A stretch of 64,000 nucleotides of DNA from Candidatus Omnitrophota bacterium (GTDB lineage Bacteria > Omnitrophota > Gorgyraeia > Gygaellales > Profunditerraquicolaceae): contig JAQUMX010000004.1 in assembly GCA_028717885.1 (NCBI GenBank), positions 2,145 through 66,144 on the forward strand, in the 5' to 3' direction. Under the pieces are notes generated by a model, which saw only the letters and a program-made list of their open reading frames with translations, had not been told where the DNA came from and searched no databases. Each line of letters opens with the position of its first letter. Position 1 is the stretch's first letter. Below, one piece after another: positions 10,283 to 59,293 of the stretch. The translations under genes and the position numbers were made by a program.

Positions 10283-10319
10283 AAAAATAAAAAAACCCTA
10301 AAAGGCTTTTTTAGGGTTT
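10283..10319 (-). terminator. Intrinsic terminator, the candidate expression platform of the c-di-GMP riboswitch
   Basis: Minus strand AAACCCUAAAA-AAGCC-UUUUAGGGUUU (11-bp perfect stem) followed by UUUUAUUUUU. It lies about 65 nt upstream of the giant-gene ATG and directly after the aptamer. Confidence 0.75.
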
Positions 10320-10321
10320 GA

Positions 10322-10410
10322 TTCCTCTTTGGCAACCCCGCTATCCTTATATTAGGTAAGGACCGGAAGCTTTGCGCCCCAGCATTACTGCTAGTTAGCC
10401 TTTATCAGTA
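10322..10410 (-). promoter_or_regulatory. c-di-GMP-I (GEMM-I) riboswitch aptamer in the 5' leader of the giant surface-protein gene
   Basis: Minus-strand RNA UACUGAUAAAGGCUAACUAGCAGUAAUGCUGGGGCGCAAAGCUUCCGGUCCUUACCUAAUAUAAGGAUAGCGGGGUUGCCAAAGAGGAAU. It carries the conserved GEMM-I blocks as I recall them from the V. cholerae Vc2 aptamer (..GGCAAAC-[hairpin with GNRA loop]-GGGACGCAAAGCCUCCGG ... UAGCGGGGUUACC..). Here these are GGCUAAC, hairpin CUAGCA-GUAA-UGCUGG, GGGGCGCAAAGCUUCCGG, hairpin UCCUUA/UAAGGA, and UAGCGGGGUUGCC. P1 GGC(U)AAC/GUUGCC is complementary. Confidence 0.8.
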
Positions 10411-10452
10411 GGTACAAAATACCAAATTGTCAAAATTACATCTTATATATGA

Positions 10453-10480
10453 AATATAGCATATTTTTAGGCAATTTCAA
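10453..10480 (-). promoter_or_regulatory. Sigma70-like promoter for the riboswitch and giant gene
   Basis: Minus strand TTGAAA (10480-10475), 16 nt spacer, TATATT (10458-10453), about 40 nt upstream of the aptamer. Confidence 0.5.
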
Positions 10481-10503
10481 GGCAGGCAGCATGTTTGGCC
10501 GCC

Positions 10504-11025
10504 TTAATCTGCGGCTAGCTGCGAAATGGTAAACGCGCCTTCTAAGAGCTGGGAATTAGGCTTAGTGTTGAGATCCAGCTTCTTAACCTCCAGAAGAGAC
10601 AGGGAATTTTCCAGGCTATAGATGAATTTTATGTAACCATCGAGGCTACCCTCAGCCCTTACATCAATAATAATCTCTTTGTAGAGATCAAGGCTTCTGG
10701 GCGTCTGCGGGCGGATATCGACAATCCGGATATTCGCGTCTTTAGCGAGATTTTCCAATTCGGCTAAGGTATCTACTAAAGTATCTTTTTCCGATAAAGA
10801 TAGCTTTGCGCCCGAAGTGTATTTGTTATTCTGGATCGCCTCTTTCTGGTTCAGCAACCAGAGGTATTTTTTCAACTTTGCCCGGGTGGTAGTAATCTGG
10901 CGGTTTAAAAGCTCGTTTTTCTTAAATACAGGGGCGAGCAAAAAATTAAAAATTAGGCTAAAAATAATTATCGCTACGGTCAAATAAAAGATCAGCTTTT
11001 CTCTTTTGGAAATTATCCTTTGCAT
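10504..11025 (-). CDS. PilO/GspM-like assembly-platform protein
   Basis: 173 aa. N-terminal TM helix, coiled coil and a C-terminal alpha/beta domain. Last gene of the T2SS-like operon, 1 nt after the upstream gene. Confidence 0.7.
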   Translation of the reverse strand: MQRIISKREKLIFYLTVAIIIFSLIFNFLLAPVFKKNELLNRQITTTRAKLKKYLWLLNQKEAIQNNKYTSGAKLSLSEKDTLVDTLAELENLAKDANIRIVDIRPQTPRSLDLYKEIIIDVRAEGSLDGYIKFIYSLENSLSLLEVKKLDLNTKPNSQLLEGAFTISQLAAD

Positions 11026-11026
11026 T

Positions 11027-12460
11027 TTATTTATTTAAGCAGGCAATTTCGAATTCCACGATTTCCCCGGTTTTAGTCTTCCTCTTACTGGCATATCTGA
11101 CTTTAATATTAAAGTTTTTCAGTTCCGGCATTTTCTCCAACGCAGAGACAAAAACAAACACCGGATTCAACTCCTGCGCCTGGCCGCGTAAAATAACTTG
11201 CTTGCCTTCTTCGTAGCTAAAACTGATAAGATACGCAGAACTGGGCAGGGATTTAAAACATCCGGTTAAAAGCTCCAGGCTCGAAGACCTTTTAGCGCTC
11301 TGGCTATCCAATATCTTCGACCTTTTTTCGATTTCTTCTAGCGGCCGGGCATCTTTGCTGACCTTCTCCAATTCTGTTTTTAAACGTTGCAGGTATTTTG
11401 ATTTGTTATCGATGTTCTTGAATGTCGCTACGGACCAAATCAATGCCAAAACTGCGGCAAAAACAAACGTCCGTAAACTTTTTTGGTATACTTTCAGCTG
11501 CTTGCCTTTTTCCCTGACTTCTTCGGGCACAAGGTTAAGGGTATCTTCTATCGTATCCACCCCGAAACCAAAAAGGCTGACAAAAGAACACCCGTAAGAT
11601 TGAGCCTTTTGCGCCAAGGCATCGGAAAGATTAATTTTTTTATAAAAAGGTACCTGCTCAATTGACAAAGGGACCTTTTCTTTTAATAAATTGAAACATT
11701 CTTCCATCATCTTGCCGCTCCCCAAAATCATGATTTTTTGCGGCTGCTCTTTCGAAAATTCTTTTGTATAAGCCTCAAGGGAACGGTTGACTTCCTCGAC
11801 GAAAACAAACTTCCAGTCTTCTCTTGAACGGTTTAGTTTGAAATACCTGCTAAAGGCCATTTTCCTTTTGGAAACTACCACCAGCTCAACCTGATTAAAA
11901 TCGATATCGACGATCATTACCGGAGGATTATCCTGCGGAAAAAGGTAGTTGTATAAATTACATATCCCGTATGATCCAAGATGGATGAAAAATTTTTTTA
12001 TTTTCAGGGCCTTAAATATTTCCAGGTAACGGGAAACAATGTCTTTGTGGACAATAACCAGATTGATCGCTGAATACCCCCCGGTTTGCGTAGAAATCAC
12101 TTGATAGCCGGTAATTAATTCGTCGATCGGATAAGGCAGGTACCTCGGAGCCTGCAAGGAAGCGATCTTTGCTATTTCCTGAGGGGATTGGGCCGGAAGG
12201 ATAGCGTGCCGGCAGGTGGCCTGGTTGCGCGCCAGCGAAAGGATTACCGGGTAATTATTGATCCCGAGCTTTTGGGCAGCCGCTAATAACTTCTGCGTCA
12301 ACTTTTGATTATCGGCGCTTTCTGCCAAAGCTTCAAATTCAAGGCCGAGAAATTCTTTTTTCCCGTCTCTAGAGCATTTTACCGCTTTAAAGGCATTGTC
12401 GGTTATCTGCAGGATAAAAACAGTATTCTTGTTGCCTAGGCTACTCAACAGCTTCTTCAT
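11027..12460 (-). CDS. PilM-PilN fusion / GspL-like assembly-platform protein
   Basis: 477 aa. The ~330-aa N-terminus is actin-like and PilM-type, followed by a TM helix (LRTFVFAAVLALIWSVATF) and a ~120-aa periplasmic PilN/GspL-like domain. Confidence 0.75.
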   Translation of the reverse strand: MKKLLSSLGNKNTVFILQITDNAFKAVKCSRDGKKEFLGLEFEALAESADNQKLTQKLLAAAQKLGINNYPVILSLARNQATCRHAILPAQSPQEIAKIASLQAPRYLPYPIDELITGYQVISTQTGGYSAINLVIVHKDIVSRYLEIFKALKIKKFFIHLGSYGICNLYNYLFPQDNPPVMIVDIDFNQVELVVVSKRKMAFSRYFKLNRSREDWKFVFVEEVNRSLEAYTKEFSKEQPQKIMILGSGKMMEECFNLLKEKVPLSIEQVPFYKKINLSDALAQKAQSYGCSFVSLFGFGVDTIEDTLNLVPEEVREKGKQLKVYQKSLRTFVFAAVLALIWSVATFKNIDNKSKYLQRLKTELEKVSKDARPLEEIEKRSKILDSQSAKRSSSLELLTGCFKSLPSSAYLISFSYEEGKQVILRGQAQELNPVFVFVSALEKMPELKNFNIKVRYASKRKTKTGEIVEFEIACLNK

Positions 12461-12475
12461 TATTTTTTTATGATA

Positions 12476-13474
12476 CTATATTTGCCGCCAAAAGACAATT
12501 TTTTTGTTTTTCCGGTCATAAATAGCACTGATTTTCATCAATGTCCTGCCGGAATTACTGCTCGAATCAATACGAAAAACACTCGATTTAAAAGTAAGGC
12601 TGCCGGCAAGCTTATTTAAAAAATTCCCTTCTGCGGTGCTTAATTGGGCCAGCGTCCTGATATCGCCTTCCCCATTGACCGGTTGGGCATTGCGCAAAGT
12701 AATAATTTTTTCGCTAAGGCTTGCGGCAGCGGAAATTTCTTCTGCATTAGTGGCAAGGGCATTAGCCATGATTGCCAGCGCTTCCGGAGAAACAGTATTT
12801 ACATTTACCGCACTGGATGGGCTATAAACAGTAATGTAATTTTCCAGCTGCTTATAGACATCCCAGGCCTTTTTCTGGTAATCCGCGATTTTTCCTTTGT
12901 AAAAATACTCCAAAAGACTGACTAATTCTGCGCAATTGGAAAACTTATCTTTTTTTAACTGTGGGTAATTTAAAGTTACATCAAGCGCCGGGTCATTACG
13001 CCAGTAAAGAGCGTAATTGACCAATTCGTTTACCCCGCTTTCCACCCCGCCTTTTGCAAATATCCCGGAGAGTACAGCCGGTGAAACAAAGTTAAGATTG
13101 ACCCTACTCTCTTCATCGCTCATGCAATGATAATTATTCCCCTGATCGAGGAAACCAATGGTAAATTTATTTCCTGAGCCCTGGCTTAACTCTATTTCCT
13201 TGAAAATATAATTTTTCGTATCCGGATCTATGCCTATGCTCCAAGGATCAGTCAAACAATCCGAATCCTTTGAAACAGCAGACGCTGCGCTGCTTAAAAA
13301 CAGGATAGCTTTCTCTATTCCTGATTGTGCCAGAAGCTCTGAGGCGAGCCGCTCTTTCTGGGAACGCGCTAATTTCAAATTAATCATGGCGCGGTTTCCT
13401 AAACCGATAACAAAAACTACCAGGATCGCCAATACCCAGAGGCAAATCATCAAAATCGAACCGCGGCGCCTCAT
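12476..13474 (-). CDS. gspK: Minor pseudopilin GspK-like
   Basis: 332 aa. N-terminal hydrophobic helix without Glu5 (MRRRGSILMICLWVLAILVVFVIGL) and a helix-hairpin-helix-like VNVNTVSPEALAIMA motif typical of T2SS protein K. Confidence 0.75.
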   Translation of the reverse strand: MRRRGSILMICLWVLAILVVFVIGLGNRAMINLKLARSQKERLASELLAQSGIEKAILFLSSAASAVSKDSDCLTDPWSIGIDPDTKNYIFKEIELSQGSGNKFTIGFLDQGNNYHCMSDEESRVNLNFVSPAVLSGIFAKGGVESGVNELVNYALYWRNDPALDVTLNYPQLKKDKFSNCAELVSLLEYFYKGKIADYQKKAWDVYKQLENYITVYSPSSAVNVNTVSPEALAIMANALATNAEEISAAASLSEKIITLRNAQPVNGEGDIRTLAQLSTAEGNFLNKLAGSLTFKSSVFRIDSSSNSGRTLMKISAIYDRKNKKIVFWRQI

Positions 13475-14109
13475 GGGTTTCCTCCTAAGGGAATAGCGAT
13501 TGTCCTTAAAAAATCTACGGCAGAAACTTCTTCGCCGTGCCTATCCTTCTCAATCAAGGTAAGTTTTATTCTTACTGCCAAAGGCAATGACTTTTCCTGG
13601 TCCTGGTTCTGCTCCGCCGGCCAGGTATCTTGCCAGGCAATAGGATTATTCGCATCGGAAGACCGATAAGCAAACTCCAGCGAGATGTCTTTTATATCCG
13701 CAGCTAATTCTTGCGGCTCGAGCAGAGAATTTGTTTCGCTCGCCTCCAGCCCACGGTAAAAGTAGCGTTTCAAAACTTTATCCGTAAGTTCATACCGCAC
13801 CCGGCAAGGCAAAATCCGGCTCTCTCCTTTTTCGAAAACCTCGGATACCGAAAAAAATTCTAAACCGGACTGGGCTTTACCGCCTTTAAACCCTGAGCCG
13901 GATTGCATATAACAATAGGAATTCTTTAGATCGCTTTCCATGCGGTTTAAAATTACTTTTGCCGTCTGGTAAATTCCTGCCGCAGATTCCTGTTTTTCGT
14001 AGCTTAGGATCCCGGTCTGCAAGGCAGAATAAACACCCACTACGATCACCGCAGAAAGCGAAACTGCAAGCAATACTTCAATTAAGGTAAAACCTTTTTT
14101 CTTGATCAT
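13471..14109 (-). CDS. gspJ: Minor pseudopilin GspJ-like
   Basis: 212 aa. Prepilin leader MIKKKG|FTLIEVLLAV. Overlaps neighbouring genes by 4 nt. Confidence 0.75.
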   Translation of the reverse strand: MIKKKGFTLIEVLLAVSLSAVIVVGVYSALQTGILSYEKQESAAGIYQTAKVILNRMESDLKNSYCYMQSGSGFKGGKAQSGLEFFSVSEVFEKGESRILPCRVRYELTDKVLKRYFYRGLEASETNSLLEPQELAADIKDISLEFAYRSSDANNPIAWQDTWPAEQNQDQEKSLPLAVRIKLTLIEKDRHGEEVSAVDFLRTIAIPLGGNP

Positions 14110-14495
14110 TGGCTTTGCGCAGGTATGAGGGCTAAGAAATTAAGCATTGATTTCTCCCGGCTATTCTTACTCGGTAAAAACACCTTAAAATCCAACAACA
14201 ATAACCCTTGGTCGGCAGAATCCGATAAAGAACAATTCCAGTCAAACTGACTTTGCTGCAGTGTCGCGGCGCCTTCCTGGAACCTGGTTACGGAGGCAGA
14301 ATTTTTTTGTATTGCGCTAATCTCGAAGATTTTTTCTTCCGCTAAAAATGTAGCGGTAATCATATCCTGTGCCAGCCTTTGCGAAGCAAGTAATGTGACA
14401 AAGGAACGAAAAATAAAAATAATCGCCGTAGAAACTATGGCAATAGTGATCAAAACTTCAATAAGGGTAAACCCTTTATTTGACCTGGATTCCAC
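14106..14495 (-). CDS. gspI: Minor pseudopilin GspI-like
   Basis: 129 aa. Prepilin leader ..SNKG|FTLIEVLITIAIV. Confidence 0.75.
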   Translation of the reverse strand: MESRSNKGFTLIEVLITIAIVSTAIIFIFRSFVTLLASQRLAQDMITATFLAEEKIFEISAIQKNSASVTRFQEGAATLQQSQFDWNCSLSDSADQGLLLLDFKVFLPSKNSREKSMLNFLALIPAQSQ

Positions 14496-14934
14496 CTGAG
14501 GCTCCGCTAAAAATTAATGACAACTTATCCTTGTTCTGGTTTTCAAAAACTAAGCTCGCTTTACCGGTACTGGCATCCGGATAAAAGTAGACTCCTTGGT
14601 CCGCAGCAGGATCAAGCGAAACCTCTACTCCGCGCGGCGCCTGGTAGACCTTGGCAAACCTGCCGCTAAGATTCTTGAATTCCGCATTCTCCAAGGTTAA
14701 AGCCTGTAATTGGCCGCTTTCAATATTGACTGCCAGAAAATAGGTCTTCCCCTGCGAAATAGCGCTATCCTGCAAATAGCGGCTTAAGAAATAAATATCC
14801 TTGGAAAAATTTTGCAGTTCAAAACGGCAAAAGGTACTTTTGAAGCGCGGGAAGGCAACCGCCGAGGCGACCCCGATAATGATAATTACTATAAAAAGCT
14901 CGATAAAAGTAAAGCTTCTAATTTTGCGTATCAT
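14476..14934 (-). CDS. gspH: Minor pseudopilin GspH-like. The track ORF extends to 15039, but the likely start is ATG 14934
   Basis: MIRKIRS|FTFIELFIVIIIIG from ATG 14934. The longer ORF would overlap gspG by 120 nt. Ser rather than Gly sits at position -1 of the prepilin site. Confidence 0.7.
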   Translation of the reverse strand: MIRKIRSFTFIELFIVIIIIGVASAVAFPRFKSTFCRFELQNFSKDIYFLSRYLQDSAISQGKTYFLAVNIESGQLQALTLENAEFKNLSGRFAKVYQAPRGVEVSLDPAADQGVYFYPDASTGKASLVFENQNKDKLSLIFSGASGGIQVK

Positions 14935-15292
14935 TGCAGATTTGGCCTTCGGACTTGGTTTCATCAGGGCCGCTGGAGCAAAGCTTGTATTCTTTGCCGT
15001 CCGGAGAAGAATAGATATATGCTTTTCCCCATGGGTCAACAGGTTTTCTTTTCAGGTACGGCCCCTTTCCGGTTTTGGCGGTCAAATCATCGAGGCTGGC
15101 AGGGTATTTGCCGTTATCCATTTCATACATATCCAAGGCCGTAGCAATATTGGCATTAATATCCGCTTTAGCAGCAGCAATCCTGGCTTCTTCCGAACGG
15201 CCAACCAGACGCGGCATTACCATTGCCGCCAATACTCCGATAATAATTACCACTAACATTAACTCAATAAGCGTAAACCCTTTATTTCTCAT
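14918..15292 (-). CDS. gspG: Major pseudopilin GspG
   Basis: 124 aa. MRNKG|FTLIELMLVVIIIGVLAAMVMPRL..., DMYEMDNGKYPASLDDL and DPWGKAYIY are hallmark GspG motifs. Confidence 0.9.
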   Translation of the reverse strand: MRNKGFTLIELMLVVIIIGVLAAMVMPRLVGRSEEARIAAAKADINANIATALDMYEMDNGKYPASLDDLTAKTGKGPYLKRKPVDPWGKAYIYSSPDGKEYKLCSSGPDETKSEGQICNDTQN

Positions 15293-15314
15293 CGTATCCT
15301 CCTTTAGAGCTAAA

Positions 15315-16523
15315 TTATCTGGCCAGCAAATTAATTTGGAATATTGGTAAAAGCATGGAGATCACGATAAACCCTACGATTATCCCCATTACCAAAATAA
15401 TTACCGGTTCGAGCATCCGGGTTAAGTTCTTTATCGTGGAGTCCACTTCTTTTTCATAATCCTGCGAAATACGCAATAGCGCCTTCTCCAGCGTCCCGGT
15501 TTCTTCCCCTACACTCACAATACTATTTACCATGCTCGGGAATAATTTCGATTCGCTTAAACACCTGGACAAGCTTAAGCCGTCATTGATCCGTTCCCTA
15601 AACCGCAAAAGCTCGATCCGTAAGATTTCATTTTCCGCGAGGGCCGCGGAGATATCCAAAGAAGAAGTAATGGTAATGCCGCTAGAAAGCAGCAGCGCCA
15701 ACGTGTGCATCAGCCGGCTGATTTCGCTCTTTAAGATAATATCCCCGAAAAAAACTAATTTCAATTTTATCCTGTCCCAAACGATTTTATTGGCAACTAC
15801 TCGCTGTGAACGCCGAAACAAGAATACGCCGGTAATTACAATTGCCAGGATCATCCACCAATAAATGCGCAACGCATTAGAAGCTGCAATCAAGGCTCGC
15901 GTAGGAAGAGGTAACACCTGGCCCATATCTTCGAACATTACGGTTAAGCGCGGAATGACAAAGGTGAGCAGTACTATTATCGTGCCAATACCCACCAGCA
16001 TGATAAAAATAGGATAGATCAAAGCCGAACTCAGGGAATCGCTGAAATCCTGTTCTTTTTCCAAAAACCCGCTTAGGCGCTCCAGCGCCCCGTCGATATT
16101 CCCCCCCACCTCACCGGAATGGATGAGCTGTACATAGAGGTTAGAAAAAATTTGCGGGTGATAATTTAGGCTATCCGATAAAGATTTCCCGTCTTTGATC
16201 TTGCTTACGACGTCATTAATCACCGCCCTAAAATATTTATTCGTGGTCTGGCGGGAAATAATATTCAAACCATTGATGATATTGATTCCGGAACCGATCA
16301 GATTGGATAGCTGGCGGGTAAAAACTACGACTTCCTGTTTGCTGACCTTGCGAAAAGGAAAAAAACTTTTTCTTTCCAGGGAGATATTTAGTGCTTCGAT
16401 AGAAATCGGAAAGTAGCCTAATTTCGTAAGCTTGGTGACTGCTTCACTTTCTGATTCAGCTTCGATTTCCCCTTGGATAGTTTTATCGGGTGCAGGCTTG
16501 GCAATATAGATATATTGAGGCAT
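15315..16523 (-). CDS. gspF: T2SS/T4P inner-membrane platform protein GspF/PilC
   Basis: 402 aa with two T2SSF-type repeats and 3 TM segments. The start abuts the gspE stop. Confidence 0.9.
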   Translation of the reverse strand: MPQYIYIAKPAPDKTIQGEIEAESESEAVTKLTKLGYFPISIEALNISLERKSFFPFRKVSKQEVVVFTRQLSNLIGSGINIINGLNIISRQTTNKYFRAVINDVVSKIKDGKSLSDSLNYHPQIFSNLYVQLIHSGEVGGNIDGALERLSGFLEKEQDFSDSLSSALIYPIFIMLVGIGTIIVLLTFVIPRLTVMFEDMGQVLPLPTRALIAASNALRIYWWMILAIVITGVFLFRRSQRVVANKIVWDRIKLKLVFFGDIILKSEISRLMHTLALLLSSGITITSSLDISAALAENEILRIELLRFRERINDGLSLSRCLSESKLFPSMVNSIVSVGEETGTLEKALLRISQDYEKEVDSTIKNLTRMLEPVIILVMGIIVGFIVISMLLPIFQINLLAR

Positions 16524-18245
16524 TTATTCTTCAGGCAATTCTTCCTGCTGAGTTACCCGGATTACTTCGCTAAAGGTAGTAATTCCTTCGATAACCTTGG
16601 CCAAACCATCCTGACGCAATGTCCTCATACCTTCGGAGATTGCTTTCTGTTTGGTTTGCTGAGCTGAAGCGCGGTTCATAATCAAGTCGCGGATCGCCGC
16701 GGAAACCGTGATGATCTCATGGATCCCTGTCCTGCCGTGGAATCCGGTAAACCTGCATTCTTCGCACCCCTTGCCTTCAAAAATATTGAAATCCCTGGCC
16801 CCTAAGTTCAGGTTTTTTCGGATTTCTTCCGTGATTTCCTTGCTTGCGGCTACCGGGGCTTTACATTTCGGGCAGATTACCCTCACTAATCTTTGGGCAA
16901 TCAAACATTCCAAAGAAGATGACAATAAAAACGGCTCAACACCCATATCGATTAACCGGGTCACTGCTCCGGCGGCATCATTGGTATGCAAAGTGGAAAA
17001 TACCAGGTGGCCGGTGAGCGCGGCCCGTATAGTGATCTCTGCGGTTTCATAGTCTCTGACCTCTCCGACCATGATTACATCGGGGTCATGCCTTAAAATA
17101 TGCCGTAGACCCGTTGCAAAACTTAAGCCGATTTTAGGGCTGACCTGGATCTGGTTAATCCCTTTAAGCTGATATTCAATCGGGTCTTCAACGGTAATAA
17201 TCTTCACGGAATCAGAATTGATCCTGGATAGTGCCGCATAAAGCGTAGTGGATTTTCCTGATCCGGTAGGGCCGGTGACAAAAATCACTCCGTGAGGTAT
17301 CTTGATTACTTTTTCGATAATTGCCAAATCTTCCGGCGACAATCCGATATTGCCTAGCTCCAGGAAAAATTGCGGGCTTAAAATCCTCAAATGCACCGCT
17401 TCTCCGAAAGCCGTAGGCATAGTGGAAACGCGTAAATCAAGCTCATGTTCCTCAACCTTAATTTTGATCCTACCATCCTGCGGCAGCCGGTGTTCGGCGA
17501 TATTCAGGTGCGCCATTATTTTTATGCGCGAAACAATCGCCGGGTGGAAATATTTTATGGTTTCGGGGATATTAATGTTATAAAGTATGCCGTCTATGCG
17601 AAAACGCGTGCGCAACTCATCATGAAAAGGCTCCAAGTGCACATCCGTTGCCCGGCTCTTGATTGCTTCAGAAAGAATTTGGTTGACGAACTTGATGATC
17701 GAGGCATCTTCCGCCATATCTTCCAAGTCTTGCGCCTCTTCCGCTTCTATCCTGCTTTCTTTTAGGTCGGATTTCTGCGTAATCATCCTTTCCAGGGTTT
17801 CCGCGCCCACGCCGTAATACCTGCGGATCGCATCCTGGATATCCGACTCGCTGGCCAATACGCCCTTAACTTCCAGGCCCAAAAGCAACCTCAGGTCATC
17901 AAGGGTACGCACATCCAAGGGATCAGTCATGGCGATAATCAGGCTGTTATCTTTAAATTCAAGGGGGATGATTTTATAGTGGCTTGCGAATTTCGCCGGG
18001 ACCTTTTGGATAATCAGGTCTTCGATATCTTTATTCTTCAATTTTATATAGGGGATGTTTAACTGGTGGGAAAGGATCTCAAAAAGACGCTCTTCCTTGG
18101 CAAACCCAAGCTCGACCAAAGTCCGGCAGATAAAATGGCCGCTGTTCCTCTGCTCTTTAAGGCCGATCTCCAATTGCTCAGAGGTAATCACGCCTTCATC
18201 AATCAGGATCTGGCCGATAAGAATGCCGCTTCTGCTGACTACCAT
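16524..18245 (-). CDS. gspE: T2SS/T4P assembly ATPase GspE with an MshEN-type N-terminal domain
   Basis: 573 aa. Walker A GPTGSGKST, a tetracysteine motif (CPKC...CEEC), and N-terminal T2SSE_N repeats. Confidence 0.92.
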   Translation of the reverse strand: MVVSRSGILIGQILIDEGVITSEQLEIGLKEQRNSGHFICRTLVELGFAKEERLFEILSHQLNIPYIKLKNKDIEDLIIQKVPAKFASHYKIIPLEFKDNSLIIAMTDPLDVRTLDDLRLLLGLEVKGVLASESDIQDAIRRYYGVGAETLERMITQKSDLKESRIEAEEAQDLEDMAEDASIIKFVNQILSEAIKSRATDVHLEPFHDELRTRFRIDGILYNINIPETIKYFHPAIVSRIKIMAHLNIAEHRLPQDGRIKIKVEEHELDLRVSTMPTAFGEAVHLRILSPQFFLELGNIGLSPEDLAIIEKVIKIPHGVIFVTGPTGSGKSTTLYAALSRINSDSVKIITVEDPIEYQLKGINQIQVSPKIGLSFATGLRHILRHDPDVIMVGEVRDYETAEITIRAALTGHLVFSTLHTNDAAGAVTRLIDMGVEPFLLSSSLECLIAQRLVRVICPKCKAPVAASKEITEEIRKNLNLGARDFNIFEGKGCEECRFTGFHGRTGIHEIITVSAAIRDLIMNRASAQQTKQKAISEGMRTLRQDGLAKVIEGITTFSEVIRVTQQEELPEE

Positions 18246-18287: not shown

Positions 18288-19250
18288 TTAAGGATGGTAC
18301 TGCGAAAGCCGCTTGATTCTTTTAAGCATGTTCGGATGCGTACTCAACAGCTCCATCATCCTATCGCCGAGATTTAAACGCATGGTTTTATTCCTTAATA
18401 ACTCCAGTTCCGACGGATCGATGGAACCGCTTCTGTCCAAATCAAGCTGGCTTAATTCACGGATTTCATTCATTGCCCGGGAAGGATCGTTCAAGAAAAA
18501 TGCTTTTAGCCCCTCTGCTTCCTTTAGGGAATCTTTATCCATGCGTGCTGCCCCATAAACAAGCTTATAAAGGCTGGAAGCCAGCCACGCAGGCTTATTC
18601 CCTAATTCCACAGACCCCTTATCCGCAAAATATTCACGGATACGCGAAGCATAAAGCACCAGTAAATTCGTGATAAAATAAAAAAGGAAAGCCGCTAGCC
18701 CGATCAAAAGCGTATTCGAACCGCGCTCATCCCTTCTGCGGCCGTAAAAAAGGAATTGCCAGGCAATCCGGTACATCACCGTCGGGATTACGGAAAGCAG
18801 CGTAATCGTCAAAACATCCCGGTTCTTTAAATGGGTCAATTCATGCCCCAGTACCGCCCTTAGCTCATCGTCATTTAACAAACCAAGGATGCCTTCGGTT
18901 ACACATACGCGGCCGTCTTTAAGGCTCCTGCCAAAGGCAAATGCATTGGGAATATTGATCTGTGCGATACATACGCGCGGCATCGGGATATTCGCCCGCA
19001 TGCTCATGGCCTCGACAATTTGAAAAAGCCGCGGATATTCCTGCCGCTTTACATATTTTACCCGCATGCTCCATTCCACGATTTTCGGCCCCAGCATATA
19101 CTGGATAATCATCATCGCTACGGAAATAGCGATATAAAACCAGAAGTCATATACGTGGAAAAATGCGCTGCCGATAGCCACAATCAATGCGTAGATAAAC
19201 GCGAAAAGTATTGTTACCAATAACCACATCCTCAATTGCAAAGAAACCAT
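18288..19250 (-). CDS. htpX: M48-family zinc metalloprotease HtpX
   Basis: 320 aa. HELTHL zinc motif and 4 TM segments. Confidence 0.85.
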   Translation of the reverse strand: MVSLQLRMWLLVTILFAFIYALIVAIGSAFFHVYDFWFYIAISVAMMIIQYMLGPKIVEWSMRVKYVKRQEYPRLFQIVEAMSMRANIPMPRVCIAQINIPNAFAFGRSLKDGRVCVTEGILGLLNDDELRAVLGHELTHLKNRDVLTITLLSVIPTVMYRIAWQFLFYGRRRDERGSNTLLIGLAAFLFYFITNLLVLYASRIREYFADKGSVELGNKPAWLASSLYKLVYGAARMDKDSLKEAEGLKAFFLNDPSRAMNEIRELSQLDLDRSGSIDPSELELLRNKTMRLNLGDRMMELLSTHPNMLKRIKRLSQYHP

Positions 19251-19302
19251 CTTAATTCCTCCTAAAAATATATTTTGGGTGAAAAAATGCGGGCTGGAAT
19301 AA

Positions 19303-19695
19303 TTATTTGTTTACGTCGGCTTTTATTATAAACCTTATTACGGGATTGTCAAGATTATCGGTATCTACATACACATACTGCATTACCGGCCCGGAATACC
19401 CCTTACTTTTAAATTTAACTTCGATAACCGTACTTTCTCCTGGCGAAAGCGCCTTATCTTTGATCTTCGGAACCGTACAGCCGCAAGAAGCAGTTATGTC
19501 TTTAATCTTCAAAACCTTCTTTGAATCATTATGAAACTTAAATTCATGAGTTACGATTGTACCCTCTTTTATTTTTCCGAAATCCCATAAAAACGGATCG
19601 GCAACCTGCTCCTGCTTTACCTCGAATTTAGCATTCTGCGCCAGGCAGCCGGAAAAAACAAACACCAGGATTAACAAACCCGGGATTCTTTTCAT
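19303..19695 (-). CDS. DUF1573 domain lipoprotein
   Basis: 130 aa. Lipobox FSGC, WDFGKIKEG...HEFKFHN...LKIKDITASCGCT. Confidence 0.75.
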   Translation of the reverse strand: MKRIPGLLILVFVFSGCLAQNAKFEVKQEQVADPFLWDFGKIKEGTIVTHEFKFHNDSKKVLKIKDITASCGCTVPKIKDKALSPGESTVIEVKFKSKGYSGPVMQYVYVDTDNLDNPVIRFIIKADVNK

Positions 19696-19697
19696 TA

Positions 19698-20861: not shown

Positions 20862-20910
20862 AGGGAAAAGTATATAGCGTTTAGCGGCCCCGGTCAATAT
20901 CAAAGTGTAA

Positions 20911-24330: not shown

Positions 24331-24331
24331 G

Positions 24332-24697: not shown

Positions 24698-24761
24698 CTC
24701 ACCCTCCTTGCCCACAAGGGCAGACCGGCCTTCTCTATAAGTCCGGGGTGTCTATATATAA

Positions 24762-24790
24762 AGTATACCTTAAAATAAACCTGAAGTCAA
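24762..24790 (-). promoter_or_regulatory. Sigma70-like promoter of the acidic-protein/membrane-protein/TPR operon
   Basis: Minus strand TTGACT (24790-24785), 17 nt spacer, TATACT (24767-24762). Confidence 0.55.
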
Positions 24791-24801
24791 TATTATCGAG
24801 G

Positions 24802-25884: not shown

Positions 25885-25900
25885 ATTAATGCTTTCTTAT

Positions 25901-28043: not shown

Positions 28044-28065
28044 TAAGGATGTTTGATTCTTTCCT

Positions 28066-28461: not shown

Positions 28462-28474
28462 TTTTTCAGTCTAA

Positions 28475-52691: not shown

Positions 52692-54506
52692 TTACCCTTC
52701 TTTATTGCCCTCGTTCCTATAATAATAATGATAATAATAGTATGAATCTTTTTTCTTTACCTCAACGTCATTTAAGATTACCCCTAAAATTTTCGCTTTG
52801 GCTTCAAGTAACCGTTGTTTGCCATGCAAGACGTGGTCCAGGTTTATCCTGCCGGCGCGGATGATCTCAACAACGCCTTCGCACATATTTGCCAGGATCG
52901 AAGCATCTGCCACTGTCATTACCGGAGGCGCGTCCACAATAATCCGGTCGAATTTTATCTTTAAGCCTTCAAATAATTCTTTTGTCTTTACGGAAGTTAA
53001 AAGTTCCGCCGGGTTAGGCGGTGTCGGCCCGGAAGGTATCAAGTACAGGTTGGGTATGGGCGTTTTTTTGATTACCCTCTCTAACGTTGCCGTCCCCGTA
53101 AGATAGCTGCTTAAGCCCTCTTTATTATCCAAATCAAAGGATTTTGCTATGCGGTGTTTACGCATATCCCCTTCCACAATCACTACCTGCTCATTCTTTT
53201 GCGCAAAAACAATCGCCAAATTTATCGAATTTGTGGTTTTACCCTCTTCGGGGAAAGTGCTGGTAACCAGGATGACTTTTAGCGGCCGGTCTTCCGGCGA
53301 AGAAAAGATTATAGAAGTACGGATACTGCGGAATGCTTCTGCAATAGTAGTAGCCTGCTGCGAATAGCAGATCAGGTCTGCGCTCCTATCCGAAGACACC
53401 TCCTTCTTAAAAGAAGGCACATAACCCAAAAAAGGAAGCTTTACATAGAGCTCGACATCTTCTGAGGTCTTGATTGTGGAATCGATGTATTCAAGCAGTA
53501 TTGCGATACAAAAACCTCCCAAAAGCCCTAAAATAGCCGCTGAGATTATATTGCGCGGCTTATTAGGCCCCAGAGGCTGCTTAGGAACTTCCGCGGGATC
53601 AACAATCCTGATATTAGAAGTCTGTAATTCCTCCGAAACACTGGTTTCTTTTGCGCGTTTAAGCAGGGATTCATAAAGCTCTTTATTCGATTCCACTTCA
53701 CGCTTTAGGATATTGTATTCTCCCATTTTCTGATTTAAACTGAGTAAACGGTTAGTTTCAATATTAATTTTATCTTTTATTGATTTTAACTCGGAATAAA
53801 GCCCGATCATTTTCGGGTGTCTTTCTTTATAACGCTTAGACGATTCTTGTATCTCCGTCTCAACCCTGGCCTGGTCTTTTTTCAATGTTTCTAAGAGGCT
53901 CTCGCTTTGCTCCTGCATTGTAGGGATTGAAACGATTTTATTTTCCTGGATATAGCTGTTTAGCTTACCTTCCGCGTTCTCCAGTTTCTTCTTGATACCC
54001 ACCAACTGTTCTTCGAGCCAGCCTACGGCCTGGCGCGAAGTAGACGATTTATTTTCTAAGTCCTGCTGGATATAAAGGCGGGCAAAGGTATTCACGATCT
54101 TCGCGGCTTTCACCGGATCGTAACTATTAAAGCTCACATTCACTAAACGGCTTTCTTTTACTGGCTCAACAAAAAGTTTCCTTATGAAAGCACTGACAAT
54201 ATCGCCTGCTTTCTGGAATTCTTCATCCTGGCCTAATCTTAACTCATCAACTGTTTTTTTTACGAGCGTGCGGCTGGTAAGGATTTTGTACTGCGTCTGA
54301 TAATATTCTTTATCAGCGATACCTGATTGGTAAACCTCTTCTATGGAAACTATTTTTGGCGGGGTCCTTTCTATCAGGATACTGGTGGTAGCCCGGTAGA
54401 TCGGGATCATACGCATGGTAAAAACAGTAACCGTTCCTACCAGCACAAAAAAGAACGCAAAGATAACCCAAAACCTTTTCTGGATTATCTTCAGATAATC
54501 CTGCAT
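52692..54506 (-). CDS. wzc: Polysaccharide co-polymerase / BY-tyrosine autokinase (Wzc-like). The track ORF extends to 54539
   Basis: Wzz-type periplasmic coiled-coil domain between 2 TM segments. Walker A FPEEGKTT. C-terminal Tyr cluster DSYYYYHYYYRNEG. Confidence 0.85.
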   Translation of the reverse strand: MQDYLKIIQKRFWVIFAFFFVLVGTVTVFTMRMIPIYRATTSILIERTPPKIVSIEEVYQSGIADKEYYQTQYKILTSRTLVKKTVDELRLGQDEEFQKAGDIVSAFIRKLFVEPVKESRLVNVSFNSYDPVKAAKIVNTFARLYIQQDLENKSSTSRQAVGWLEEQLVGIKKKLENAEGKLNSYIQENKIVSIPTMQEQSESLLETLKKDQARVETEIQESSKRYKERHPKMIGLYSELKSIKDKINIETNRLLSLNQKMGEYNILKREVESNKELYESLLKRAKETSVSEELQTSNIRIVDPAEVPKQPLGPNKPRNIISAAILGLLGGFCIAILLEYIDSTIKTSEDVELYVKLPFLGYVPSFKKEVSSDRSADLICYSQQATTIAEAFRSIRTSIIFSSPEDRPLKVILVTSTFPEEGKTTNSINLAIVFAQKNEQVVIVEGDMRKHRIAKSFDLDNKEGLSSYLTGTATLERVIKKTPIPNLYLIPSGPTPPNPAELLTSVKTKELFEGLKIKFDRIIVDAPPVMTVADASILANMCEGVVEIIRAGRINLDHVLHGKQRLLEAKAKILGVILNDVEVKKKDSYYYYHYYYRNEGNKEG

Positions 54507-54550
54507 TGTTACTTCACGGACCTGAGCAGACGGCAACATGCGCTAATGCC

Positions 54551-55036
54551 CTAAAGGGCTTTTGGGACCAAAGAAATTATTTTCAGGATTTCTTTCTTGT
54601 CTTTAGCTTTCTTCAACAGTTCAACCGTATATTTATCTTTGACCAGCCGGGAAATCTCTGCGAGAATTTTCAAATGCGCGCCCACTTCTTTTTCCGGGGA
54701 TGCCAGCACGAAAAACAAATATGTCCTCTCCCCGTCCAGCGCGCCGAAATCTATTCCTTCTTGCTTACGTCCAAACGCAAGGATAAAACTTTTCGTGGCG
54801 TCCGACTTGGCATGCGGGATAGCTACTCCGCTGCCAATCCCCGTTGAACCAAGCGCTTCTCTTTTCATCAGTGCGGCCAAAAACATCTTCTTGTTTTTGA
54901 GCTTTTTTGACCGGCCGATCAAATCCACTAACTCAACAAGAATTTCTTTCTTGGTTTTTCCCTGCAGGCCCAACTCAATAAACTTTTCTTTCAAAACCTC
55001 GGACAACCTTATTTCAGTGTTTTTTTCTAGAGCCAT
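54551..55036 (-). CDS. ptsN: PTS EIIA(Ntr)-type regulatory protein
   Basis: 161 aa. GIGSGVAIPHAK phospho-His motif. Confidence 0.75.
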   Translation of the reverse strand: MALEKNTEIRLSEVLKEKFIELGLQGKTKKEILVELVDLIGRSKKLKNKKMFLAALMKREALGSTGIGSGVAIPHAKSDATKSFILAFGRKQEGIDFGALDGERTYLFFVLASPEKEVGAHLKILAEISRLVKDKYTVELLKKAKDKKEILKIISLVPKAL

Positions 55037-55775: not shown

Positions 55776-55848
55776 TGTAAGTAATTATATTAGGCTTTTT
55801 TTCTTTGTCAAGATTTAAATTTTTAAAAGCACACCTTAATTTTTGATT

Positions 55849-57882
55849 TTAATCAAAATATTCTTTGATGGTATCCAAGAATTTTTTATTCTCTTCTGAA
55901 GAAGCCTGGCTCCCTGTAAAATCTTCCAAATCAGTATCTGCAAAATCCCCGGATAGATTTTCCGTGGCCAGCAAGGTATCTAAAATGTCCTGGCGGTCCA
56001 GAAAACGGGTCATCCGGGTAAAGACCATTCCTCCTTCATCAAAAACCCCTTTGGGCGAACGGTCCAGGTGCGGCTTTAAAAAATAAAGCTCGTCCTTTGC
56101 CCGGGTAATTGCCACATAAAATAACCTGCGCTCTTCTTCCAGTTCTTCATCGCTTTCTAGCGATAAATACGAAGGGATATGCCCTTCTGCGGCGTAAATA
56201 ATAAAAACCGCTTTCCATTCCAGGCCCTTGGCAGAATGTATAGTAGAAAGTGTCAGCCGCATATCATCCTTATCGCGCTTGCCCGGTTCGATAATGTTCC
56301 TCTCCGGAGGCTCCAGCGCCATATCGGAAAGAAAATCCTCTAACGAATCATAGCGGGAAGCAATCCTTTGCAAAGAATCAAGATCATTGACCCGCTTATG
56401 GAAATCATCGTACTTTTCTTTTAATAACGGCTGGTAATATTCTAGGAATGCATCGATCAATTCGGCAGGAGAAAATTCCTCCCCCCGGGTTTTCTGGAAC
56501 AGTTCGAAAAATTTCTTTAAATCTTCCGATTGCGCTGCGCGCTTATTTTCCAGGTTCAGCCCTTTTTTATTCTTGATAATTTCATTGATCACGATTGCCG
56601 CGGTCTTTGGGCCAATCCCGCGCATCAATAAAAGCTCGCGGTACCAGCTCACCTCATCGAAAAGGTTCTGTTTAATGCGCAAAAATCCTAACACATCTTT
56701 AATGTGCGCTGCTTCCACGAATTTTTGCCCTCCGTATTTTACAAACGGGATATTACGGCTGGCAAGCTCGATTTCCAGGTCATTCGAATGCCAGGAAGAA
56801 CGAAAAAGCACGGCAATGTCGCTTAGCTCTGCGCCTTCCTCCCTTAACTCCAGGATCCTGTCCGCGATATAACGCGACTGTGCATGCTCATCTGGAGCAT
56901 CCACAAAAACCGGCAGGTTCTCGCTGTTCCTTTTGGTAAAAAGCGTTTTTTCGAATTTTTCTTTGGCGGCATAGATAACTTCATTCGCTAAATTCAGGAT
57001 CGGCTGAGTGGAGCGGTAATTTTCTTCCAGGGTAATAACCCTGGCATCTTTAAAAATCTTGGGGAAATCGATGATATTTTTAAAATTTGCCCCCCGGAAA
57101 GAATAAATGCTTTGCGAATCATCGCCTACCACCATGATATTGCCGTGCACGGAAGATAAAAGGCAGGTAATGTGCGCCTGTAATTTATTGGTATCCTGGT
57201 ATTCATCCACCATGATGTATTTATACTTTTTTGCCAGTGACAAACGGATATGCTCGTGTTGTGTAAGCAGGTCCCTTAAAAAAACCAGCAGGTCATCGTA
57301 ATCCAGCAGGGATTTTGCACGCTTAAACTTAACGTATTCATCCCGGATTTTCTTGATCTCTTCTTCCCATTCGATAAACTGCGGGTATTCTTCGTAAAGC
57401 ACTGTTCCCAAATCTTCGGATTTATTGATGCTTTTGGAAATCACCTCGAGGATTGCTTTCTTCCTGGGAAAACGCTTGTCGGTTTTGTTAAAGCCTAATT
57501 GCGTGCGCACCAAATTAACCGTATCCTCCGCATCGCTCTCATCGAGAATAGAGAAATTATTCTTCAGCCCCAGCACTTGCGCATACTTCCTTAAAGTATA
57601 GTTGGCAAAAGAATGGAATGTGCCGCCGCTTACTTTCCGGCAGCGCTCATCCAATAATAATGATGCCCGGCGCAGCATCTCCTCTGCCGCCTTACGGGTA
57701 AAAGTGAGCAATAAAATCTCTTCCGGAGCCACACCCTTTTCTACTAAGTGCGCTACCCGAAAAACCAAAGTGCGGGTTTTGCCGCTGCCTGCTCCGGCAA
57801 TTACCAAATACGCCCCTTCGCTGGATTGTACAGCCTCCAATTGAGCAGGGTTCAATTCTTTTTTATAATCGATTTTTTGCAT
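55849..57882 (-). CDS. UvrD/PcrA/Rep-family ATP-dependent DNA helicase
   Basis: 677 aa. AGAGSGKT Walker A, VDEYQDTN, and other SF1 motifs. Confidence 0.9.
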   Translation of the reverse strand: MQKIDYKKELNPAQLEAVQSSEGAYLVIAGAGSGKTRTLVFRVAHLVEKGVAPEEILLLTFTRKAAEEMLRRASLLLDERCRKVSGGTFHSFANYTLRKYAQVLGLKNNFSILDESDAEDTVNLVRTQLGFNKTDKRFPRKKAILEVISKSINKSEDLGTVLYEEYPQFIEWEEEIKKIRDEYVKFKRAKSLLDYDDLLVFLRDLLTQHEHIRLSLAKKYKYIMVDEYQDTNKLQAHITCLLSSVHGNIMVVGDDSQSIYSFRGANFKNIIDFPKIFKDARVITLEENYRSTQPILNLANEVIYAAKEKFEKTLFTKRNSENLPVFVDAPDEHAQSRYIADRILELREEGAELSDIAVLFRSSWHSNDLEIELASRNIPFVKYGGQKFVEAAHIKDVLGFLRIKQNLFDEVSWYRELLLMRGIGPKTAAIVINEIIKNKKGLNLENKRAAQSEDLKKFFELFQKTRGEEFSPAELIDAFLEYYQPLLKEKYDDFHKRVNDLDSLQRIASRYDSLEDFLSDMALEPPERNIIEPGKRDKDDMRLTLSTIHSAKGLEWKAVFIIYAAEGHIPSYLSLESDEELEEERRLFYVAITRAKDELYFLKPHLDRSPKGVFDEGGMVFTRMTRFLDRQDILDTLLATENLSGDFADTDLEDFTGSQASSEENKKFLDTIKEYFD

Positions 57883-57889
57883 AGGAAGG

Positions 57890-59293
57890 TTATTTCTCTT
57901 CTTCTAAAATCTTAACGAAGACATCCACGATACGCGGGTTAAACTGCGTGCCTTTACTGCGCTTCAATTCTTCGATTGCCTGTTCTTTGCTGAGTGCCGG
58001 GCGGTAAGCGCGCACCGAGGTCATCGCGTCATAAGAATCGATGATCGAAAGGATTTGCGCAAAAAGATGGATATTGTTACCGCTGAGCTTATCGGGATAG
58101 CCGGTGCCGTCAAAACGCTCATGATGGCCCCTGACTATCGCCAACATCTCCGGGTTAATCATAATCGGCCGTAAAATGTCCTCTCCGATCACCGGGTGCT
58201 TCTTTATCAACTCCCACTCTTCCGGGGTAAGTTTTTCTTTTTTATTCAAGACATTTTCCTGGATGCCTAATTTACCGATATCATGCAACACCGCGGTTTC
58301 ATGCAGCAATTCCATTTTTTCCGGGGAGAGCCCCCATCTCTGGCCGATTTTCAGCGCATACTCCGCAACCCGCTCAGAATGGCCCCGCGTATAAGAATCC
58401 TTGGCTTCGATAATCCTGATCAACGACTGGATTACCCGGTAAACGTAATTCTGCATCCGCCTTCTGGCCTTATAAAGTGAACGCGCCATGCGGTTAAAAT
58501 TCCTGCCTAATTCGCTGATCTCATCATTACCCGCAACCTCTACCTGGTAATTCAAATTTCCCGAGGCAATACTGCGCGTACCGGCAACGATTTTTTCGAT
58601 CGGCTTGGTGATCCTTCTGGAAAATACGACCCCTAAGAGCACAGAAAGGATAATCCCGATAATCAATACAAAAAGTGCGCGCCTTAAAATTTCATTCTGC
58701 GCCTTATAAACATCGGTAGCTGCGATATCCGCGCCTAAGATCGCAATGGTTTTACCATCATTATCAACTATCGGCGCATAACCGGAAAGCGTAGCCCCCC
58801 ACTGGTCGACTTCCAGCTTTGTATCGGAAGACGGGCCCTCGAAACCGCTAAGCATTTCCGGAAAACGCGTAGCATCGTACCTATCTCCCGGCAAAGCGCT
58901 TAATTTGTCTTTTCCGCGGCCGATGATCAAAGGGTCAGCATCAACCACAAACTGCAAAACCCCATCCTGGCTGGTTTTTGCCAAAGTATAGATAAAACGG
59001 ATCTGGCGGTTTGCTTTTTTGATTCGCCGCAACCTCTCTAACACAATCTTGTAGGCATCGCTAGCAGCTCCTTCATGGTTCAAAGGCACGCGGGCGAGCA
59101 CATCGCCGTCTACCAATAACGCGGCAGTGCGCGCGACAATCTTGATTTTATCCCTTAATTGGTTGAACTGGGAATCCAGGGAAACTTTATAAATCAGGAA
59201 ATTGCTCATGCCGCCGACAAAGAGCATCGATGCCACCAGCGCCAGAGTTACTTTAAACTGAAAACTCTCGAAGTATGACCTGATTTTTGTCAT
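57890..59293 (-). CDS. Membrane sensor with a periplasmic Cache-like domain, HAMP and an HD-GYP c-di-GMP phosphodiesterase domain
   Basis: 467 aa. HDIGK and HHERFDGTGYP motifs, with a HAMP segment after the second TM helix. Confidence 0.85.
   Translation of the reverse strand: MTKIRSYFESFQFKVTLALVASMLFVGGMSNFLIYKVSLDSQFNQLRDKIKIVARTAALLVDGDVLARVPLNHEGAASDAYKIVLERLRRIKKANRQIRFIYTLAKTSQDGVLQFVVDADPLIIGRGKDKLSALPGDRYDATRFPEMLSGFEGPSSDTKLEVDQWGATLSGYAPIVDNDGKTIAILGADIAATDVYKAQNEILRRALFVLIIGIILSVLLGVVFSRRITKPIEKIVAGTRSIASGNLNYQVEVAGNDEISELGRNFNRMARSLYKARRRMQNYVYRVIQSLIRIIEAKDSYTRGHSERVAEYALKIGQRWGLSPEKMELLHETAVLHDIGKLGIQENVLNKKEKLTPEEWELIKKHPVIGEDILRPIMINPEMLAIVRGHHERFDGTGYPDKLSGNNIHLFAQILSIIDSYDAMTSVRAYRPALSKEQAIEELKRSKGTQFNPRIVDVFVKILEEEK

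Follow-up and report, generated by a model that had tools for sequence, protein, structure and literature searches.

Layout of the locus

The window analysed here is a 64,000-nt stretch of a Candidatus Omnitrophota genome (assembly GCA_028717885.1, contig JAQUMX010000004.1, positions 2,145 to 66,144), in which five types of parts connected with the second messenger cyclic di-GMP (c-di-GMP) lie within 49 kb: a riboswitch in front of a giant gene, an MshEN-type N-domain on the ATPase GspE of a type II secretion system (T2SS)-like operon, a stand-alone PilZ protein, a membrane sensor with a GGDEF-family domain, and an HD-GYP phosphodiesterase. An initial annotation had read these parts as one coherent sessility island, and each of them was present at or near the position it had given (Table 1).

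The G+C content of the window is 43%, and nearly all genes lie on the minus strand. From high to low coordinates, the gene order starts with a HlyD/ABC/ABC-2 set, the HAMP-HD-GYP gene, uvrD, a gene for a PagL-like outer-membrane protein, a phosphotransferase system (PTS) EIIA-2 gene and a polysaccharide locus. It continues with the genes for PilZ, a BBP2_2 porin, a Wza-like exporter, a flavin adenine dinucleotide (FAD) oxidoreductase, two unannotated open reading frames (ORFs) and a TPR protein (28461-22251). The plus-strand HAMP-GGDEF gene, an orf401/DUF1573/M48 trio, the T2SS-like operon, a 290-nt intergenic region and the giant frame complete the series.

Table 1. Coordinates of the features discussed in the text (positions in the window)
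Feature	Position	Strand	Basis or remark
N-terminus of giant secreted protein, at least 3405 aa; signal-peptide-like start, TIG domain, at least 20 fn3 repeats	1-10216	-	Frame runs off the window
Second terminator-like hairpin with U tract, between T1 and the Shine-Dalgarno/ATG (10216)	10246-10258	-	
Intrinsic terminator T1, AAACCCUAAAA-AAGCC-UUUUAGGGUUU with U tract; 11 pairs, 8 nt past the aptamer	10293-10319	-	
c-di-GMP-I (GEMM-I) aptamer, canonical pocket, GUAA tetraloop	10327-10409	-	Rfam, consensus comparison, compensatory changes
Promoter-like site TTGAAA-16-TATATT with TG extension, for riboswitch/giant-gene transcript	10453-10480	-	Sequence
T2SS-like operon GspE-F-G-(H)-(I)-J-K-L-M	10504-18245	-	Profile matches
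GspE	16524-18245	-	T2SSE 456 bits
MshEN-type N-domain, GspE residues 1-150, contact residues degenerate	17796-18245	-	Hidden Markov model (HMM), alignment
M48 peptidase, DUF1573 protein, unannotated 401-aa protein	18288-20903	-	Always divergent from GGDDF gene in relatives
Membrane sensor, HAMP and GGDEF-family domain, motif GGDDF	20950-22254	+	HMM, motif
Export sub-operon: PilZ, BBP2_2, Wza-like, FAD oxidoreductase, two small unannotated ORFs, TPR	22251-28461	-	
TPR lipoprotein-like protein	22251-23897	-	
Poly_export/SLBB Wza-like protein	25901-26755	-	
BBP2_2 porin	26739-28082	-	
PilZ, 131 aa, stand-alone	28066-28461	-	PF07238 39.4 bits (cutoff 22.5)
Promoter-like site before PilZ, within a 119-nt gap; TTGACA-18-AATATT	28473-28502	-	
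Polysaccharide genes (about 26-29 kb), from Wzc-like kinase (52692-54539) to Bac_transf (28581-29276)	28581-54539	-	
HAMP-HD-GYP phosphodiesterase	57890-59293	-	HD_5 PF13487 119.6 bits

A riboswitch upstream of the giant gene

Rfam revealed a sole riboswitch in the window, the annotated GEMM-I element before the giant surface protein, which was thereby borne out. Its score with RF03167 (c-di-GMP-I-GGC) was 62.3 bits, where the gathering score is 59 (E 2.5e-12), and 110 nt separate it from the downstream ATG of the giant gene. A second member of clan CL00126 (RF01051/RF03167) also scored above its own threshold at this site but was masked by clan competition. Weak Rfam matches elsewhere in the leader (Phe leader, miRNAs) were dismissed as U/C-rich hairpins of the expression platform.

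The pocket nucleotides (AAAGG/C junction, GC/AA/AGC and UU/GC/CA) agreed with the RF01051 consensus, and presumably correspond to G20, A47 and C92 in the numbering of the Vc2 structure. According to the printed consensus, the pocket of RF03167 differs from that of plain c-di-GMP-I only in having GCGAA instead of GCAAA after the GC pair. Since GCAAA was found in the window aptamer, in that of the comparison locus L088 and in all 15 leaders of the family described below, the window element was read as a canonical c-di-GMP aptamer. An altered-ligand reading as a "GGC variant" was rejected, because the defining G is absent and an A stands in its place; the Rfam label reflects overall similarity, not the pocket.

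Relatives of the leader were obtained from a DNA pattern scan of metagenomes, in which 15 of the 120 pattern matches shared an upstream element. Compensatory changes across these 15 leaders support the aptamer fold, both in P1 (CCU/AGG to UCU/AGA in L173, CUU/AAG in L118 and GCU/GGC in L174) and in P2 (CCGG/CGG to CCUG/AGG in L174, and CAG/CUG in L138 and L179), while the distal stem of P2 was fully replaced in L161, L171 and L118. The leader has a promoter-like site of its own, past the end of the T2SS operon at 10504, and the extended -10 box AATATGYTATAYTT of this site was kept in related leaders; the same type of terminator was present in 14 of the 15. An alternative P1 helix (UUUGGUA:UUGCCAAA) proposed by RNAalifold was left as unproven, as variants disrupt the pairing and none compensate. 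A 5′ leader element, UUGACAAUUUGG, lies at about 10415-10426 (minus strand), some 20 nt before the aptamer, and recurs in 12 of the 15 related leaders. This element could pair with the 3′ strand of the aptamer; its variants break the pairing, and no compensation was seen. Closer to the giant gene, a U/C-rich stretch (10272-10287) is able to pair with the Shine-Dalgarno region (10220-10232).

A counterpart of this arrangement was found in locus L161, in which GspK, GspL and GspM (54%, 65% and 69% identical to those of the window) are followed by the leader, then by a 76-aa ORF and finally by a giant fn3 protein, and L171, a near-identical strain, has the same arrangement. The L161 leader is 92% identical to that of the window over 170 nt and the giant protein 53% over its first 1000 aa, so that conservation is far higher in the non-coding leader than in the neighbouring proteins (53-69%). 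Orthologues of the giant protein were recovered via the DNA pattern scan only; the first 397 aa gave no match in a word-index protein search.

The genes behind the leader cassette were those of fn3-rich or secreted proteins (L173), operons with REC and GAF-HD-GYP proteins (L096, L174), BNR/Ycf48-like propellers of 519-555 aa, a small basic ORF, and a 76-93-aa protein with the motif ..TFLNREE.D.LD... The latter protein (..V(I/V)TFLNREE(L/V)D(Y/F)LD..GKDALFS..) and the 45-65-aa basic ORF (..HMNFLKALRLFEGMPLFG) recur behind the cassette, appearing as first or second ORF past the riboswitch in L118, L161, L154, L147, L163 and L209; the L118 member of the 76-93-aa family, the one scanned, had no Pfam match.

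Riboswitches of the c-di-GMP-I class precede adhesin, pilus or flagellar genes in other bacteria as well, as exemplified by Vc1 before gbpA in Vibrio cholerae and by Cd1, an OFF switch before flgB, in Clostridioides difficile. The window leader resembles known GEMM-I leaders in its aptamer fold, its pocket nucleotides, and its position as a 5′ leader with an intrinsic terminator before a surface-protein gene. It differs from them in its Omnitrophota host, in its target (a giant fn3 protein past a T2SS-like operon), and in belonging to a nearly invariant leader family with the 5′ element and often two terminators, for which the direction of switching is a prediction.

Predicted direction of the switch

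Terminator T1 does not overlap P1, and ligand binding should therefore be unable to block T1 directly. Two alternative pairings connect the aptamer with the terminator: the aptamer junction AAAGGC(U) is complementary to (A)GCCUUU of the T1 loop and 3′ arm, and the P2 strand GGGGUU to the T1 5′ arm AACCCU. Both would lead to read-through in the ligand-free state and to termination with c-di-GMP, i.e. to an OFF switch. RNA folding placed the AAAGGC:GCCUUU antiterminator in the minimum free energy structure of the nascent transcript for four of six leaders. At full length, the antiterminator fold lay 1.6-3.1 kcal/mol from the terminator fold in four leaders, was the minimum in a fifth, and was 8.6 kcal/mol worse in L209. 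Moreover, 14 of the 15 leaders have GCC in the T1 loop, the other bases of which vary, and L143, which has a different terminator, nevertheless keeps a CCCCG:CGGGG complementarity to the P2 strand of the aptamer.

These folding models favour, with moderate confidence, a c-di-GMP OFF switch in front of the giant gene. Without ligand, strands of the aptamer would pair with the terminator sequence and transcription would read through into the giant gene; with c-di-GMP bound, T1 would form and transcription of the giant gene would stop. The promoter, aptamer and terminator between the T2SS-like operon and the giant gene would in this way let c-di-GMP set expression of the giant fn3 protein in cis.

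Several observations weigh against OFF control and speak instead for an ON switch, or for a merRNA-like stand-alone RNA, i.e. a short c-di-GMP-binding transcript for which control of the giant gene would be secondary. The terminator fold is the full-length thermodynamic minimum in five of the six leaders, and many leaders of the family have two terminators, one more than a simple OFF model calls for. OFF control of the HD-GYP operons behind the same cassette would create positive feedback, whereas ON control would give the negative feedback expected of a homeostatic design. The cassette, including promoter and terminator, is also 86-93% identical before unrelated genes, and the merRNA of Bdellovibrio provides a precedent for a stand-alone c-di-GMP-binding RNA. 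However, behind each of the 15 leaders a gene in the same orientation begins within about 100-620 nt from the aptamer, and the order of T2SS, riboswitch and giant gene is conserved in L161. Folding likewise yielded no pairing by which the ligand-bound aptamer, or a freed 5′ element, could disrupt T1, and the ON mechanism was set aside for that reason. We consider the ON or merRNA-like alternative unlikely, though not negligible, and continue with the OFF switch.

The T2SS-like operon and the MshEN-type domain of GspE

The window encodes the T2SS proteins E, F, G, J and K, proteins resembling L and M, and two further N-methyl pseudopilins; a secretin (GspD), a GspC and a prepilin peptidase were not found there. 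The GspH ORF (14476-15039) overlaps GspG by approximately 120 nt, and its true start is probably later. The best relatives of GspE stem from Candidatus Omnitrophota metagenome-assembled genomes (72% and 62% identity).

GspE scored 617.8 with TIGR02533, against a cutoff of 630. Its N-domain matched Pfam MshEN (PF05157) with 79 bits and NCBIfam NF053729 ("c-di-GMP_motif") with 52.8 bits against a cutoff of 38 (residues 10-61), which upholds the annotated fold and family; key residues for contact with c-di-GMP, on the other hand, are substituted. The alignment with V. cholerae MshE (5HTL) is ungapped over the four-helix N-subdomain (residues 9-69), and as in MshE the hydrophobic core is kept, together with G11, G18, G47, L25, L29, L54, L58, Q32 and Q61. 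Unlike MshE, the window GspE has R9L, R38F and G40C: motif I reads L-I-G (Arg lost) and motif II reads F-I-C (Arg and Gly lost). The closest orthologues (L001, L002) have the same substitution pattern.

In MshE, G40I abolishes c-di-GMP binding (PDB 5HTL; Wang et al. 2016; PMC5013675), and in the resurrected PilF GSPII-A domain an Arg-to-Ser exchange at position 1 of motif II abolishes binding, while a Gly-to-Ala exchange at position 3 weakens it 10-30 fold (PMC12002112). Judged by its residues, the MshEN domain of the window GspE is thus probably not a high-affinity c-di-GMP receptor. Counting against this assignment, the PilF GSPII-C domain binds c-di-GMP (PMC12002112) and our alignment puts a non-glycine at its G40-equivalent; with such a binder lacking the glycine, motif-based prediction for MshEN domains is not fully reliable.

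The order from GspE to GspM is the same in L001 and L002. Omnitrophota loci centred on the T2SS generally kept this order without riboswitch, giant gene or GGDDF-motif sensor; an Rfam scan of seven of them revealed no riboswitch, and a metagenome scan with GspL gave no match. Further c-di-GMP parts were present at most 10 kb from GspE in seven of 12 other Omnitrophota T2SS loci, for example GGDEF and HD-GYP genes upstream in L002 and an HD-GYP gene downstream of the T2SS in L077. In five loci (L005, L006, L009, L016 and L025), GspE is 714-731 aa long (e.g. L006 9998-12154) and carries a canonical PilZ domain (RxxxR and NxSxxG) fused at its C-terminus, and this clade has a separate MshEN-only ORF of approximately 160 aa just upstream.

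The GGDDF sensor and the PilZ-headed export operon

For the plus-strand membrane sensor, the annotated HAMP and GGDEF-family domains were found above cutoff (HAMP 48 bits; PF00990 53.1 against 23.8; TIGR00254 48.1 against 37.4), the profile matches covering only the N-terminal two thirds of PF00990 and TIGR00254. In place of the active-site motif [G/A/S]G[D/E]E[F/Y] the sensor has GGDDF, and the RxxD I-site is absent (GPDD at the site). The protein further has D-L-D, FKAFND and GD, and PLTKLPGN at the start of the domain; judged from the sequence, we take these to include the counterparts of PleD D327, N335 and D344 (metal-binding/guanine-reading), so that the guanine-reading N335 and D344 would be kept. 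GGDDF and PLTKLPGN were kept in all 120 best homologues (56-100% identity, 401-523 aa), and this invariance marks the motif as a conserved variant rather than a decayed copy. A protein 100% identical to the sensor is present in NCBI under the name Candidatus Omnitrophica, encoded on a 75.7-kb contig.

Activity of an enzyme with a GGDDF motif has been demonstrated once, for GSU1937 from Geobacter sulfurreducens, which is one of the Hypr GGDEF enzymes, has the Hypr serine and makes cyclic GMP-AMP (cGAMP) (PMC8835794). Unlike GSU1937, the window protein keeps Asp at the specificity position (GD in YGIAKGDEA), from which GTP is the expected substrate and c-di-GMP the expected product. A Hypr/cGAMP reading was not favoured, given this Asp and the G20 of the riboswitch.

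The sensor gene is convergent with the neighbouring export operon, the head of which is the annotated stand-alone PilZ gene before an outer-membrane and Wza-like export set, as had been proposed. PilZ has both canonical motifs, RxxxR as RIKER (R10-R14) and NxSxxG as NISASG (N41-G46). L090 and L082, where the same arrangement was found, keep both of them. The pilZ stop overlaps the BBP2_2 porin gene, which in turn overlaps the Poly_export/SLBB gene.

PilZ-gated exopolysaccharide systems are known from alginate (Alg44) and cellulose (BcsA). As in these systems, genes for making and exporting a polysaccharide are linked here to one for a canonical PilZ domain (RxxxR and [D/N]xSxxG). Unlike in Alg44 and BcsA, the window PilZ is stand-alone instead of fused to a synthase or co-polymerase. 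Its translation is coupled to that of a BBP2_2 porin and a Wza-like exporter, and the locus further encodes Wzc-like, Wzy_C and Wzm/Wzt proteins. In the mechanism that we envisage, the HAMP-GGDDF sensor would make c-di-GMP, and PilZ would bind it and then license export or assembly of the polymer.

The polysaccharide locus of about 28 kb that had been annotated was confirmed at about 25.9-54.5 kb. It contains an initiating sugar transferase, many GT2 and GT4 glycosyltransferases, a Wzm/Wzt ABC pair, two Wzy_C proteins and a Wzc-like tyrosine kinase. Membership in an XrtA/PEP-CTERM system was rejected, as the equivalog models for its exporter, TPR, chain-length and kinase proteins all scored below cutoff (TIGR03027 164 against 180, TIGR02917 79.5 against 312, TIGR03018 132 against 231), and no exosortase family match was obtained among the proteins scanned. 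Five head-to-tail GT2 paralogues (39791-43912, minus strand) share 46-79% mutual identity, a tandem amplification, and a sixth lies nearby (45845-46753, minus strand). The locus is headed by a PtsN-like PTS EIIA-2 gene (54551-55036, minus strand) immediately before that of the Wzc-like kinase, and this gene may provide a regulatory input apart from c-di-GMP.

Loci centred on the GGDDF gene in relatives allowed this neighbourhood to be compared. L090 (80% identical), L082 (72%) and L085/L086 (68%) keep the series M48-DUF1573-orf, GGDDF, and TPR-orf-orf-FAD-Wza-BBP2, and in L090 and L082 this is followed by PilZ and then the initiating transferase. L088 (65%) lacks the exporter, whereas its TPR protein and polysaccharide genes are retained. 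All of the GGDDF-centred loci kept the divergent orf-DUF1573-M48 trio and the convergent FAD oxidoreductase, and none had a T2SS beside GGDDF, tRNA synthetase and MacB genes lying past M48. The trio of M48, DUF1573 (Ig-like) and a protein of about 360-400 aa was present at every GGDDF locus (L082, L085, L088, L089, L090), more steadily than the polysaccharide genes, and may, from this co-occurrence, be the real functional partner of the sensor. In L085 and L088, a c-di-GMP-I riboswitch (5206-5389 and 7154-7237, respectively, both minus strand) directly precedes a PAS-GAF-HD-GYP gene. This pair is placed between the M48 peptidase and the tRNA synthetase, with the GGDDF orthologue 3-4 kb away.

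The HD-GYP phosphodiesterase

The annotated Cache/HAMP-HD-GYP protein retained its HAMP domain and intact HD-GYP motifs, with the HD dyad in LHDIGK and HHExxDGxGYP present as GHHERFDGTGYP, whereas the Cache label found no support in Pfam, even at E 10. An identical protein occurs in assembly GCA_028706935.1, whereas look-ups of the exact GspE and PilZ proteins returned no record. Its gene is the last but one of an efflux-type OEP-HlyD-ABC-ABC2 operon, followed by uvrD, and is situated 3.3 kb past the end of the polysaccharide locus; membership in this other operon and the distance place it outside the proposed island. The enzyme probably degrades c-di-GMP cell-wide, not for the surface locus in particular.

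A probable division into two conserved modules

Comparison with relatives divided the window into units. The series of T2SS-like operon, riboswitch and giant fn3 protein (module A) recurs in the metagenome relative L161. The series of M48-DUF1573-orf, GGDDF, and TPR to Wza-like, porin, PilZ and polysaccharide genes (module B) recurs in relatives that have no T2SS beside it; where the window has its T2SS and giant gene, the GGDDF-centred relatives have tRNA synthetase/MacB genes or a riboswitch-controlled HD-GYP gene. Synteny thus held for each module and not for the block as a whole. We estimate a probability of about 0.55, based on these sequence comparisons, that the window consists of two separately conserved c-di-GMP-linked modules and a phosphodiesterase gene linked to neither. 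Some of the comparisons pull the other way. L085 and L086 lack PilZ although their gene order otherwise agrees, in L089 (59%) carotenoid genes stand next to GGDDF in place of the polysaccharide block, and the loci L090 and L161 both end before the point at which modules A and B could adjoin.

The sessility island of the initial annotation would have rising c-di-GMP switch on the adhesin (through a riboswitch acting as ON switch), secretion via GspE/MshEN, and matrix export via PilZ, with the local cyclase and phosphodiesterase setting the level. The proximity of the five parts and their almost uniform strand are in keeping with such an island, as are the recurrence of c-di-GMP parts near Omnitrophota T2SS ATPases (GspE-PilZ fusions, HD-GYP and GGDEF neighbours) and the pilZ and GGDEF genes that a preprint reports near Omnitrophota giant genes (see below). 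What stood of it are the links of riboswitch to giant gene and of PilZ to exporter, which are conserved. The block is however not syntenic as one unit, the MshEN contacts are substituted, and the phosphodiesterase gene sits in an unrelated operon. An ON switch lacks structural support in that no route was found for the ligand to block the terminator, and the OFF logic favoured by the expression platform counts against a module that is simply all on with c-di-GMP. We regard the single island as improbable.

Equally improbable, in our estimate, is a co-location without functional meaning, in which Omnitrophota would simply be rich in c-di-GMP genes and any surface region would look alike. The density of parts agrees with this explanation: 12 Omnitrophota T2SS loci held at least eight genes with GGDEF, HD-GYP or PilZ domains in 172.6 kb (about 1 per 22 kb), and the window, with three in 64 kb (about 1 per 21 kb), is not denser, although the comparison loci are all T2SS-anchored and not random samples of genomes. 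MshEN-type N-domains are, moreover, generic to the GspE ATPase family. Chance placement does not, however, predict the adjacencies of GGDDF, PilZ and exporter and of riboswitch and giant gene, which are conserved in relatives at 53-80% protein identity; it is these adjacencies, and not the number of parts, that indicate function.

Implications for Omnitrophota

All parts are of known kinds, and their clustering is not remarkable in itself. In Omnitrophota, loci with a T2SS-like locus directly before a very long gene, associated with pilZ and GGDEF, have been described in a preprint (West-Roberts et al. 2023, bioRxiv 10.1101/2023.11.21.568195), so that the association of T2SS-like operon, giant gene, pilZ and GGDEF is already published. 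The window has this arrangement, with the GspE to GspM operon ending at 10504, the giant ORF starting at 10216, and pilZ and GGDEF nearby. Unlike in the published loci, the long protein here is fn3-rich with a putative signal peptide, and no SecA-type or multi-transmembrane features of the published type were seen in the visible 3405 aa. Its gene is preceded by a riboswitch, a term with 0 occurrences in the preprint. What appears to be new, as far as the sequences tell, is the riboswitch before the giant gene with its conserved leader family, the GGDDF orthologue group linked to a PilZ-headed exporter, and the degeneracy of the GspE MshEN domain.

Few features of this uncultured phylum are as puzzling as the giant genes beside T2SS-like loci, and we know of nothing reported on their control. 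The riboswitch would connect the giant protein with an established second messenger and, as an RNA of approximately 200 nt, offers a handle amenable to in vitro work for which culture is unnecessary. The phylum-wide GGDDF sensor family and the PilZ-headed exporter operon are two further biochemically tractable items.

As a more tentative extension, which we consider unlikely, the nearly invariant cassette might define a c-di-GMP-repressed regulon of giant fn3 surface proteins beside the T2SS-like machine, secreted BNR/Ycf48-like propellers, small conserved proteins and REC plus GAF-HD-GYP operons. If so, the OFF-controlled phosphodiesterases would generate positive feedback and with it a bistable switch between low- and high-c-di-GMP lifestyles in ultra-small, putatively predatory or host-dependent bacteria, in which the phylum-wide GGDDF sensor, next to the PilZ-gated polysaccharide exporter, would make up the opposing arm at high c-di-GMP.

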